The notes under the pieces are model-generated. The model was not told the DNA's origin. It searched no databases and saw only the letters and a program-made list of their open reading frames with translations. Positions 8,123 through 40,496 of a stretch of 64,000 bases of DNA are shown in pieces. Source of the stretch: Thermoproteota archaeon (GTDB taxonomy: Archaea; Thermoproteota; Thermoprotei; Thermofilales; B9-G17); assembly GCA_029258885.1 (NCBI GenBank), contig JAPDJW010000001.1:32001-96000 (forward strand). The letters are read 5' to 3'. The translations under genes were made by a program, and so were the position numbers. Positions within the stretch are counted from its first letter, which is position 1; each line of letters begins with the position of its first letter.

Positions 8123-8971
8123 TTATCTAAAAGCCCTGAAGTCTATACAGATTTTATATACGCGAGGAGCATAGGGTAAAACCTTTCTTTTATTCAATAT
8201 TTCAATTTTATAATTATGTTTCCTGGCGTGCTCCTCTATTATTGTAATGGCTTCATCGTAGAGATTCTCTTCATGTGCCCAATGATAAAAGTGTATTATT
8301 CCGCCATCTTCTCTAAGACAATTAAATGCTTCGTCCAGGTAGTACTGAGCTCCTTTCGGTAAAGGCATTATAACTCTATCAGCCATGCCATACCACTTGG
8401 AGGTTTCAACCTTCACATCGCCTAGTACAGGCATTATCTTATCCTCTAATTTATTAAGTTTAATATTCTCCACCATATAGTTGTATGCTATAGGATTAAT
8501 CTCTATAGCAACTATTTTTTTAACCAAAGGCTGTACTTTAGCTATCACTATACCATATGGGCATACACCAGCAAACATTAAAACTACGAAGTCCCCAGGG
8601 GCAACCTGTCTCGCTATTCTAAGTCTTTCCGTGCTTTCCCGTGGCGAAAAATACACCTTAGTAGGATCTAACTTGAAATAGCAGCCGTGTTCCTTATGGA
8701 TAACTTCAGTATTAGGATCACCCGCTATGAGTTCGTAATTCCTAGTTCTGTATACTCCCACTCTTGGGGATCTTTTAGCTAAAACCGTTTTTACATTCTT
8801 ATGAATTTTCATAATAGCTTCAGCTATTAAAACGCGCCTATGATATATCTCTTCAGGAATCTCAACAATAGCAACGGCTTTCTCTCTCGATCCTATGATA
8901 TCAAAACTTCTAGGAATGAACCGTAACTCCTCTTCAGGAATTTTGCTCTTTAAATAGCTTCTCACATCCAT
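8123..8971 (-). CDS. Trm5/Taw2-family tRNA methyltransferase lacking the D1 domain
   Basis: PRSFDIIG, KVYFSPRESTER, SAM motif LMFAGVCPY, DRVIMPLP. Confidence 0.85.
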   Translation of the reverse strand: MDVRSYLKSKIPEEELRFIPRSFDIIGSREKAVAIVEIPEEIYHRRVLIAEAIMKIHKNVKTVLAKRSPRVGVYRTRNYELIAGDPNTEVIHKEHGCYFKLDPTKVYFSPRESTERLRIARQVAPGDFVVLMFAGVCPYGIVIAKVQPLVKKIVAIEINPIAYNYMVENIKLNKLEDKIMPVLGDVKVETSKWYGMADRVIMPLPKGAQYYLDEAFNCLREDGGIIHFYHWAHEENLYDEAITIIEEHARKHNYKIEILNKRKVLPYAPRVYKICIDFRAFR

Positions 8972-14231: not shown

Positions 14232-14316
14232 GCGGGGGTGGCCGAGCAAGGTCAAAGGCGCCGGACTCAGGCTCCGGTGGCGTAGGCCTGCGTGGGTTCG
14301 AATCCCACCCCCCGCA
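14232..14316 (+). tRNA. tRNA-Leu(CAG)
   Basis: GCGGGGG/CCCCCGC acceptor, CCGGA-CTCAGGC-TCCGG anticodon arm, long variable arm, GTTCGAATC T-loop. Confidence 0.97.
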
Positions 14317-14319
14317 TGT

Positions 14320-14380
14320 AGGGATGATCGATCAGAGTTAAGATGAACTCTTGTGATGATTAAAAGGCATTTGGGTGACC
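14320..14380 (+). ncRNA. Box C/D guide sRNA targeting 23S rRNA H69/H71
   Basis: C-like GGGATGA 14321-14327, D' ATGA 14343-14346, C' GTGATGA 14353-14359, D GTGA 14375-14378; guides complementary to 39437-39445 and 39460-39470. Confidence 0.9.
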
Positions 14381-14452
14381 AATTCTCCATCTAAGATAGG
14401 CTACTTTACTTGTGTAGCCAGAAACATATAGCTTTAACAATTAGGAACGGGG

Positions 14453-14758
14453 GTAAGCCGGCTATAGCCCGCTTTCTGTACTTGGGGGATTTATCTTGGA
14501 CCTCGGCCTCTACACGGGGATATCATCCGACCGAGGCCTGCTACAGGTTGGCCGTTTCACCCACTCCTTTAACATCGTCTGCGGGTTAGCTCGTCCCCCG
14601 TTACCGGAGAGACTTCGCCGCGGTCATTCTCATCTGTTAAAGGGGGTCTCGTTTCTGATCCAGAGCCAGGGCTCTCGCCCTACCGCCTTACGGCGGTTGT
14701 AGCCCCCGTGTAAGCGGAGCTTCCTCCGGGCGAACCCGGGCACCCCCAGCCGGCTTAC
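14453..14758 (-). ncRNA. rnpB: RNase P RNA (full length, type A-like)
   Basis: 11-bp terminal P1 helix GTAAGCCGGCT/AGCCGGCTTAC, GAGGAAGCTCC, CAGAAAC, GGGTGAAACGG and ACAGAAAGCGGGCTA conserved regions. Confidence 0.95.
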
Positions 14759-14831
14759 ATTTAATTATAGATTATAGAAGTATTTTAGGCTGTCGCTTAT
14801 TCTTTTTATACACGATATTGATTTCTAATAT

Positions 14832-15341
14832 ATGCGAAGCAAGATCTATATAACAGTCATAGGCAGTAGTAAAGATATTTCTCCTAAGGTTTACGAACTG
14901 GCTGAGAAGGTTGGTTTTGAAATAGCGAAAAGAGGTGCAATTTTAGTTTGCGGCGGCAGAGGCGGAGTGATGGAGGCCGTAGCTAAGGGGGCAAGAATAG
15001 CTGGTGGCATAACTGTTGGTATATTACCAGGCGTAAGCAGAGGGGAAGCGAATCAATACATAGATATAGTAATACCTACTGGCATGGGACACGGGAGAAA
15101 TTTTCTGAATATAGTGGCTGGAGATGGCGTTATAGCTATATCTGGCGGTGCTGGCACGTTATCAGAAATTGGTCTGGCTATTGCCTATGGAAAGCCAGTT
15201 GTAGTCATCAAAGGGAGCGGAGGAGTAGCCGACCTATTGGCGGGAAAGAATATAGGTGGTACGTATATAGATTTTGCTCACACTCCTGAAGAGGCTGTGG
15301 AAAAGCTAATTAGCTTGATTAAACTCAACCAAAATAGATGA
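14832..15341 (+). CDS. LOG-family (TIGR00725-like) protein
   Basis: CGGRGGVMEAVAKGA, TVGILPG, RNFLN, GGAGTLSEI. Confidence 0.88.
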   Translation: MRSKIYITVIGSSKDISPKVYELAEKVGFEIAKRGAILVCGGRGGVMEAVAKGARIAGGITVGILPGVSRGEANQYIDIVIPTGMGHGRNFLNIVAGDGVIAISGGAGTLSEIGLAIAYGKPVVVIKGSGGVADLLAGKNIGGTYIDFAHTPEEAVEKLISLIKLNQNR

Positions 15342-15390
15342 TGAAAAGCGGGCTTAAATGATTAATGACTGAGCCTGCATCGGCTGATGA
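15336..15390 (+). ncRNA. Box C/D guide sRNA targeting 16S rRNA helix 25 region
   Basis: C ATGATGA 15338-15344, D' ATGA 15358-15361, C'-like TTAATGA 15362-15368, D CTGA 15384-15387; guides complementary to 36511-36520 and 36454-36464. Confidence 0.9.
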
Positions 15391-15568
15391 CGCATAATGA
15401 ACTACCTTTTTTCTTCAATTTAATTTCAGCTTTCAATGGTTAGTATACAATTGTAAACAGATAGCCTTCTACCGAACGTTAATGATAATCGTCTTTATCG
15501 GCATGTTGGATCGAAAAAGTTTTTAGTTGCTTCTATGTGTAACATTTAAACCACTACGGTGATAATCC

Positions 15569-18431: not shown

Positions 18432-19714
18432 GGCGATTTTTCAATCTCCCTGCCGTCTCTATTTATTTTTATTAAACCCAGTACTATAGCCTTAATCCTA
18501 TGTTTTCTGCAGGAAGTTAAGATCCTTATTTTTCTTTTCGTATAATCTATCTTATCTATTATGCCTATGCCTTCACAAAATCCCTTTTCATTAAGTATAC
18601 CTACTAGGATGTTTTTCTCATCTCCAGCTTTGACTATTTTAACGTTACCAATATGTTGTAATGCCATCTTTATGAGAGTAATACTTGTCTTGTTTACTTT
18701 AATATTGTCGGCAACTATAATTAGAAGTTCATCTTTGTATTTCTCATGATGAATTACTCTTGTATTGAGTACTTCCTCTATTATTTCTTTATCCACAGCT
18801 GGAAGAGGATCTCCATGAAATAGATAAGTATTTAAAATTTTTATCTCATCTGCATTAAGAGTTATCATCGAGGAATCCTGTAGAAATCGCATGTAATTGC
18901 TTTCTCTAAAAGCTTTCCTCTTTGGAGGAGATTTTTTAGCATATACCTTTGGAGAAGGCACTTCAATTACATCGTAATCATAGAGGTAGTTTGCCATAGC
19001 TGTATTCGCGCTTATCTTCCCCATAAAGGCTATAATATTTGGCTCTATAGCTTCAATTAGAGCACGCTTATAGATGTATGCTCTTATACCTTCAATCCAT
19101 CCATCAGTATTTATTATAGTAATATATGGAGAGAGATTTTCTCCTTCTCTTAATATCTTCAATACTCCACTTACGACCTTTTCAGGAGCATAGCTTGGAG
19201 TATCAAAGCCCACAAAATACATAATATCGGGACTACATTCTCTTAACGATACAACGTGTTCTCGTAGCATTGATAACGATATACATGAAGGGGGACCTAT
19301 GTCGGCTTGACCTATATCTGCATCCAGCACTGCCACCCGAAAGCCTTGGGCTAGCGCATTATTAGCTAAAAACGTGGTGAATGAAGTCTTTCCACTATCG
19401 GTTCCACCCAGAATTACTACCCTTAGTGTTTCACCTTTTTTCTTTGATAAAATTTCCTTCGATGCTGCTAGCCACTCATCTATTACTTCCTCATTAGCGG
19501 GTACACTTTTTATATACCCATCGGTACCAACGTTAATCTCAACTAGCCCTTCTGAGAGCGATTTAAAGGCTATAGTTTTACCGCTTTTTAGGATGGTTTT
19601 AAAGTTTAAGCCCGCTGTGAACCCAGCTATTAATATTTTTCCTTCTAGTACCTTAAGCGATAGAGGCCCTCTTAGCCTATACGTCTCATTTTCCCTTATG
19701 GCTATCTTTGCCAT
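18416..19714 (-). CDS. Clp1/Nol9/Grc3-family polynucleotide 5'-kinase
   Basis: GGTDSGKTS, DADIGQADIGPP, IINTDGW, RKAFRE. Confidence 0.92.
   Translation of the reverse strand: MAKIAIRENETYRLRGPLSLKVLEGKILIAGFTAGLNFKTILKSGKTIAFKSLSEGLVEINVGTDGYIKSVPANEEVIDEWLAASKEILSKKKGETLRVVILGGTDSGKTSFTTFLANNALAQGFRVAVLDADIGQADIGPPSCISLSMLREHVVSLRECSPDIMYFVGFDTPSYAPEKVVSGVLKILREGENLSPYITIINTDGWIEGIRAYIYKRALIEAIEPNIIAFMGKISANTAMANYLYDYDVIEVPSPKVYAKKSPPKRKAFRESNYMRFLQDSSMITLNADEIKILNTYLFHGDPLPAVDKEIIEEVLNTRVIHHEKYKDELLIIVADNIKVNKTSITLIKMALQHIGNVKIVKAGDEKNILVGILNEKGFCEGIGIIDKIDYTKRKIRILTSCRKHRIKAIVLGLIKINRDGREIEKSPYRFL

Positions 19715-35626: not shown

Positions 35627-37213
<1,587 letters not shown>

Positions 37214-37271: not shown

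Positions 37272-40496
<3,225 letters not shown>

Follow-up and report, generated by a model that had tools for sequence, protein, structure and literature searches.

The window analysed here, a stretch of 64,000 nt, contains the 16S rRNA gene (35677-37174) and the 23S rRNA gene (37313-40455), separated by a spacer without tRNA, together with an RNase P RNA and five tRNAs. It belongs to a genome of 2.10 Mb in 26 contigs with 40.3% G+C, in which the 16S gene is present as a single copy and has 64% G+C, the pattern of a thermophile. A gene for a SLOG/LOG-like protein overlaps at its 3' end with a short element that has the boxes and spacing of a box C/D sRNA. The earlier note had proposed such an sRNA, with two guides directed against both strands of helix 25 (h25) in 16S rRNA; this proposal is supported by the boxes, their spacing, the complementarity of the guides and conservation across families. 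The features of the locus, all on the forward strand, are:

14832-15341 (+): SLOG/LOG-like gene, 169 aa (PF18306, SLOG cluster-4, E 5.6e-44; PF03641, E 1.3e-5)
15306-15313 (+): weak TATA-like stretch CTAATTAG that may serve as an internal promoter, the C box following about 28 nt further on
15338-15344 (+): C box ATGATGA, matching the RUGAUGA consensus
15345-15357 (+): D' spacer, 13 nt
15348-15357 (+): D' guide GCGGGCTTAA, 10 Watson-Crick pairs with 16S 36511-36520
15358-15361 (+): D' box AUGA, a degenerate CUGA of which GA is kept in all homologues
15362-15364 (+): D'-C' linker, 3 nt
15365-15371 (+): C' box AUGACUG, degenerate, with RUGA kept in most homologues
15372-15383 (+): D spacer, 12 nt
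15372-15382 (+): D guide AGCCTGCATCG, 11 pairs including one G-U with 16S 36454-36464
15384-15387 (+): D box CTGA, invariant among seven aligned homologues
15407-15412 (+): T6 run, 19 nt behind the D box

All four boxes can be read directly from the sequence and delimit an sRNA core of 50 nt (15338-15387, forward strand). As is characteristic of box C/D sRNAs, a RUGAUGA C box lies near the 5' end and a CUGA D box near the 3' end. Although degenerate, the internal D' and C' boxes retain UGA/GA, and the 3-nt linker between them falls within the 3-9 nt that a K-loop allows. The spacers, 13 nt from C to D' and 12 nt from C' to D, agree with the usual length of about 12 nt, the D' spacer being 1 nt above the optimum of 12. 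Given this longer spacer and the degenerate internal boxes, methylation directed by the D' guide may be inefficient. Canonical CTGA and RTGATGA are found at the D' and C' positions of the family f2 homologues (G015 and G019; genomes, contigs, loci and families are given throughout by our own labels G, C, L and f).

A strict four-box pattern matched 26 loci in the 2.1-Mb genome, as against none in each of 10 block shuffles, and at most of these loci the guide pairs match neighbouring rRNA sites. The true number of C/D sRNAs in the genome is surely greater than 26, as degenerate boxes are missed by the strict pattern. The same genome encodes fibrillarin (PF01269, 324.9 bits). In many of the 26 candidates (for example C3:252263+, C5:112203+ and C7:61706+), both guides match rRNA segments 20-60 nt apart.

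The C box had also been said to contain the LOG-family gene's stop codon, and this is indeed the case: the open reading frame 14832-15341 ends with TGA at 15339-15341, inside the ATGATGA of the C box, with another TGA in frame directly after it at 15342-15344. The sRNA gene thus abuts the 3' end of the SLOG/LOG-like gene, whose stop codon is supplied by the C box. The TATA-like stretch at 15306-15313 could provide the sRNA with a promoter of its own; other sRNA candidates in the genome have AT-rich boxes at a similar upstream distance. Processing of the sRNA out of the 3' end of the mRNA is plausible as well, and the T6 run is likely an archaeal termination signal for the mRNA, the sRNA or both. 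The surrounding segment, 14232-15390, forms a non-coding cluster in which a tRNA (14232-14316) and the RNase P RNA (14453-14758, minus strand) precede the SLOG gene and the sRNA.

Complementarity to the two strands of 16S helix 25

The two guides match segments of the 16S gene whose positions, in window coordinates and in E. coli numbering, are as follows; for the latter, nucleotides were counted in the E. coli sequence of a published 16S alignment (Dennis et al. 2015, Additional file 4).

36454-36464 (+): target of the D guide, E. coli 817-827, comprising the 5' strand of h25 plus 4 nt
36457 (+): U, predicted 2'-O-methylation site of the D guide by the N+5 rule, E. coli U820, nt 781 of this 16S
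36511-36520 (+): target of the D' guide, E. coli 870-879, comprising the 3' strand of h25 plus 2 nt
36515 (+): G, predicted 2'-O-methylation site of the D' guide by the N+5 rule, E. coli G874, nt 839 of this 16S

Reading the pairs from the sequence reproduces what the earlier note had described, namely perfect pairing of the D' guide (15348-15357) with 36511-36520 through 10 Watson-Crick pairs, and pairing of the D guide (15372-15382) with 36454-36464 through 11 pairs, the sole G-U being T15376 with G36460. Both duplexes thus reach the nine contiguous pairs looked for in a guide, and the pair at N+5 is Watson-Crick in each (C15353-G36515 for D' and A15379-U36457 for D). The methylation sites previously assigned to G36515 and U36457 (E. 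coli G874 and U820) came out the same when counted in the published alignment. Folding of the 16S segment 36450-36526 pairs 36458-36464 with 36514-36520, so that the targets correspond to both strands of h25 with 2-4 flanking nucleotides, as the note had also held in placing both on one helix. The guides cover both of these mutually pairing stretches.

When the guides were shuffled, the observed match lengths were attained anywhere in 16S and 23S rRNA with P = 0.0047 for D' and P = 0.017 for D, both values having been computed before demanding that the two guides fall on one helix. In the whole genome, the 11-nt target of the D guide is present a single time, within the 16S gene, and its strict Watson-Crick version is found in the genome only on the opposite strand of the sRNA gene itself. 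The 10-mer complementary to the D' guide occurs eight times in the genome. In this genome (G000), at C11 around 19368-19385, the string GATGCGGGCTTAA consists of the 16S-like GATGCGGGCT fused to the D'-guide string GCGGGCTTAA; as no clear boxes lie close by, this is probably a chance occurrence.

The guide-target duplexes are predicted to have energies of -17.6 and -21.4 kcal/mol at 37 C, and of -6.5 and -6.2 kcal/mol at 85 C. For the h25 strands alone, the corresponding values are -15.1 kcal/mol at 37 C and -5.5 kcal/mol at 85 C. Since the predicted guide duplexes are stronger than those of the h25 strands alone, the guides should be able to compete with h25 formation. As their targets are complementary to each other, the guides are necessarily complementary to each other too, and the sRNA can form a hairpin of its own through guide-guide pairing; this is predicted at -13.5 kcal/mol at 37 C and at about -1.4 kcal/mol at 85 C, where it is nearly melted.

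Homologues, their variation and their genomic context

A BLAST search with a 201-nt query returned matches confined to positions ~87-140 (~52 nt of the query) in seven genomes from four other families of the order. The survey was extended with a sequence profile (R1) and a dual-guide pattern (GCGGGCTT..YCYGCAT..CTGA), by which the dual-guide sRNA was found in 11 of the 41 genomes of the order, or 12 of the 41 if a permuted copy in G006 is included. It is present in families f1, f2, f5, f6, f7 and f8, with counts of 2/4 genomes in f2, 2/2 in f5, 2/2 in f6, 1/1 in f7 and 4/4 in f8. By profile and pattern, the sRNA was not found in G001, a genome of the same family that is 93% complete, in any of the three genomes of f3, or in any of the 23 genomes of f4, the largest family of the order. 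The search was likewise negative for the 79 genomes from the remaining orders of the class, and controls with the pattern reversed yielded no matches.

Beyond the class, a sample of 401 genomes of the phylum contained one copy in another class (G222), to which the profile added a second in the same class (G412). These copies, G222:C5:5385-5437 (L064/L068) and G412:C128:1848-1906 (L067), belong to genomes that are AT-rich and 1.1-1.4 Mb in size. The G222 copy contains the 12-mer GGATGATGTAAG two times, at its C box and again at its C' box, and this repetition suggests an internal duplication of the box region. A stricter pattern matched only six times among 185,579 species genomes, in every case in a metagenome-assembled genome, labelled Thermoprotei archaeon, uncultured Thermoproteales archaeon or Thermofilum sp. 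ex4484_15. Going by these labels, the order would be the Thermofilum-related one. Hydrothermal metagenome contigs yielded 11 true copies, two of which are new variants. Nine further metagenome matches were dismissed as chance, comprising one bacterial coding sequence seen eight times and the match L047.

The element is known in at least 14 sequence variants and in unrelated gene contexts, and is conserved in related genomes as a small independent unit. In G013 it lies behind a biotin carboxylase gene of 500 aa (G013:C1:23561-23612, minus strand, L017), the stop codon of which is the first TGA of the C box. The placement of a stop codon in the C box has consequently arisen at least twice in this sRNA family, with the SLOG gene here and with biotin carboxylase in G013. 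The copies in G018, G014 and G021 are found just upstream of an open reading frame with what we read as a GTPase-like start, and elsewhere homologues occupy other intergenic places. Synteny between the LOG gene and the sRNA was considered and rejected, the two being unlinked in G001, G005 and G013; the LOG orthologues of these three genomes end in TAA and have no sRNA element behind them. The conserved unit is the ~52-nt island alone, with a different gene neighbourhood each time.

Within this island, the seven aligned homologues all share the TGATGA of the C box as well as the D box, with variant C boxes in distant copies. Every dual-guide homologue has the same D'-guide core, GCGGGCTT. Changes in the core of the D guide are limited to C/T exchanges opposite G that keep the pairing (AGCCTGCAT, AGCCCGCAT, AGTCTGCAT, AGTCCGCAT and AGCCCGTAT). 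Among homologues there is free variation in the first nucleotides of the spacers and in the D'-C' linker. In some of them the complementarity reaches further into the 16S rRNA (GGCGGGCTT, CGGCGGGCTTA and, in G006, GCGGGCTTAACG). As the two guides are able to pair with each other, intramolecular pairing could equally explain part of the conservation of the D guide.

On the side of the rRNA, the target sequences are identical in those 16S sequences of relatives that were obtained (G004, G121 and G145), as they are in five Thermoproteota and Nanoarchaeota sequences (Pca, Tte, Sac, Iho and Neq) of the published 16S alignment. An assembled 16S segment was searched for and not found in G005-G008, G012-G015, G018, G019, G021 and G222, and a first look at G412 gave no 16S match, finding no candidate there. 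The D guide AGTCCGC of G222 was examined as a possible compensatory change and rejected: the 16S of G121, a genome of the same genus, has the unchanged GCGGGCU/AGCCCGC, and AGTCCGC is therefore a G-U variant and not an instance of covariation.

With boxes assigned by eye, seven of the variants place the N+5 site of the D' guide at E. coli 874 and five place it at 875; one has it at 873, and the permuted copy at 871. For the D guide, the N+5 site is 820 in most homologues, 821 in G008 and 819 in G015 and G019. By these assignments, the register of the duplexes on h25 is more conserved than the exact nucleotide predicted to be methylated.

The permuted homologue (G006:C24, ~8367-8424, minus strand, L007/L019) has the same components in circularly permuted order. 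A C-like box AATGACGA is followed by the guide for the 5' strand of h25 (GGCCTGCATCGG), CTGA, a linker of 5-6 nt, GTGATGA, ATAGCGGGCTTAACGA and a second CTGA. Here ATAGCGGGCTTAACGA is the guide for the 3' strand of h25; its complementarity extends 2 nt more into the 16S rRNA, so that the N+5 site moves to E. coli U871. Upstream of the permuted copy is an AT-rich stretch. As the permuted gene keeps both guides, these have stayed linked through the rearrangement.

In family f5 there is also a paralogue, which shares the C box and the D' guide (AAAGCGGGCT) but has another D guide (AACGATTTGCG or AACGGTTTGCT). It is found at G005:C13:15569-15620 on the minus strand (L015) and at G012:C3:37627-37676 (L016). 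The same f5 genomes also possess the dual-guide form, with a longer D' spacer of 16 nt (L021 and L022).

Proposed action on helix 25 and alternative readings

We consider it highly probable that positions 15338-15387 of the forward strand encode a functional C/D sRNA of about 50-55 nt that is aimed at h25. The RNA would be trimmed from the 3' end of the mRNA, or made from the weak promoter in the end of the open reading frame, with the mRNA and sRNA transcripts both ending at the T6 run. It would then assemble with L7Ae, Nop5 and fibrillarin. On the nascent 16S rRNA, the D guide would bind at 36454-36464 and the D' guide at 36511-36520, and thereby engage the two strands of h25 in the central domain. 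Following the N+5 rule, the sRNP would 2'-O-methylate U36457 (U820) and G36515 (G874). While bound, it may keep both strands of h25 unpaired and close to each other, and subsequently release them for annealing, in the manner of a 'double-guide chaperone'.

A precedent for this geometry is provided by Nanoarchaeum equitans, where sR17 (h28) and sR15 (h30) have guides against opposite strands of one 16S helix (PMC4644070, Fig. 5, Table 3). The two RNAs were proposed to methylate both strands and to chaperone formation of the helix (PMC4644070). The present sRNA resembles them in being a double-guide RNA whose D and D' guides are directed against opposite strands of a single 16S helix. It differs in that the helices concerned are h28 and h30 of domain III in N. 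equitans as opposed to h25 of the central domain here, and in that the targets are hundreds of nucleotides apart there and 58 nt apart here; the RNAs have no sequence relationship and come from different phyla. A chaperone role for h25 is plausible; the idea is in print for the same geometry.

Several of the observations above could also be accommodated by a genuine C/D sRNP that is conserved for hybridisation and not for modification, the strands of h25 being held apart or brought together during assembly of the central domain, with methylation incidental, restricted to one guide or absent at D'. Such an RNA would be expected to conserve its duplex register on h25 while the N+5 position drifts by 1-3 nt among homologues, as is observed. 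The 13-nt D' spacer, the degenerate D' and C' boxes, the greater predicted stability of each guide-target duplex compared with h25 and the retention of both guides in the permuted homologue point the same way, and the idea itself is published for sR15 and sR17 (PMC4644070). On the other hand, in the window as well as in the homologues the N+5 nucleotides form Watson-Crick pairs, as they should in active guides, and drift of methylation sites within hotspots is common among ordinary methylation guides (PMC4644070). We regard this reading as unlikely, if one to be taken seriously. In a more far-reaching form, selection may keep the simultaneous capture of both h25 strands and not a particular methyl group; the RNA would primarily be a strand-holding assembly factor that times the closure of h25, with the guide-guide hairpin as a temperature-sensitive, self-inhibited state. 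This we consider improbable.

Two further alternatives set aside the link to h25. A real C/D sRNA might have other RNAs (tRNA, 23S rRNA or mRNA) as its physiological targets. The eight genomic occurrences of the 10-mer complementary to the D' guide would leave room for this, as would the report that ~28% of Pyrobaculum guides have no significant target match (Lui et al. 2018, in the account given by PMC7994747). Against it stand the single genomic occurrence of the D-guide 11-mer target, in the 16S gene, and the restriction of its strict Watson-Crick form to the opposite strand of the sRNA gene. In addition, both guides fall on a single helix, the D' guide finds its best Watson-Crick match within 16S and 23S rRNA at the h25 site, and variation of the guides keeps the pairing to this 16S sequence; other targets are accordingly very improbable. 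Finally, the element might be a box-like motif arisen by chance, or a hairpin that serves stability or termination of the LOG mRNA at its 3' end, and happen to resemble h25. It does fold into a hairpin through guide-guide pairing, it is located between a stop codon and a T-run, and it has no Rfam match at threshold. Yet the same 52-nt element exists in at least 14 variants in unrelated gene contexts, and the LOG orthologues of G001, G005 and G013 end in TAA without it. Moreover, the boxes are invariant, the complementarity to 16S rRNA extends 3-4 nt beyond the self-pairing segment in both guides, and the strict box pattern has no matches in shuffled genomes. This explanation is hardly credible. 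A C/D sRNA with h25 as its target is hence the reading that we retain.

Relation to catalogued guide RNAs

At the gathering threshold, a search of the whole window against Rfam gave no C/D match. At a relaxed threshold, only similarities at the level of the boxes appeared, and these were rejected; the best was to sR3 (RF01133), with E 0.011 and 18 bits as against a gathering threshold of 41. Like sR3, the other archaeal C/D families in Rfam have a similar box layout, the similarity being limited to the boxes. Among the 489 sRNAs of seven archaea compiled by Dennis et al. 2015 (PMC4644070), none carries the present guides. The strings sought in this set were GCGGGCTTA, CGGGCTT, GGCGGGCT, GCC[CT]GCATCG, CTGCATC and CGCATCG, and no matching guide was found. 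This holds also for Sulfolobus acidocaldarius, in which the target sequences are identical, yet none of its 61 catalogued sRNAs carries these guides. M. kandleri sR76, labelled near both sites in the supplement of Dennis et al. 2015, was examined as a possible equivalent and rejected, its guides being different.

The RNA is thus a new guide RNA family, conserved in Thermofilum-related archaea, inside a thoroughly known class. It adds one well-supported, uncatalogued family to the annotation of these archaea, with predicted sites (the equivalents of U820 and G874) for which the 489 sRNAs of the seven-species reference set hold no guides. N. equitans has two clean natural examples of guide RNAs that would bind both strands of one rRNA helix, and the present RNA makes a third. 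The comparative evidence (linked guides, a permuted copy and drifting sites) could help to separate a modification role from a chaperone role. The current picture of the C/D sRNA class is unchanged by the finding. Both the overlap of a stop codon with the C box and the targeting of opposite strands are documented, common features of this class of RNA.

The overlap with an upstream gene is a case in point. About 25% of archaeal C/D sRNA genes include the upstream gene's stop codon, nearly half of them in the C box, in the account of Tripp et al. 2017 given by PMC7994747, and 23 such overlaps have been reported in Pyrobaculum (Lui et al. 2018, PMC6009581). Where an open reading frame overlaps at its 3' end with an archaeal C/D sRNA gene, RUGAUGA provides that upstream gene's UGA stop, as it does here, and nothing essential differs. 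Circular permutation is known as well: Pyrobaculum sR56 and sR57 (PMC6009581) are circularly permuted families, like the G006 version of the present sRNA, with other guides and other targets (16S U877/G908, Pyrobaculum aerophilum (Pae) numbering). The same 16S neighbourhood is addressed by the dual-guide sR70 of Ignicoccus hospitalis (Dennis et al. 2015, Additional files 1 and 4), which differs from the present sRNA in the sequences of its guides and in the nucleotides targeted; by our reading of its sequence, the guides match CUAGGUGUUGGG and CCGCAGGGAAGC, the two flanks of h26 just inside h25.
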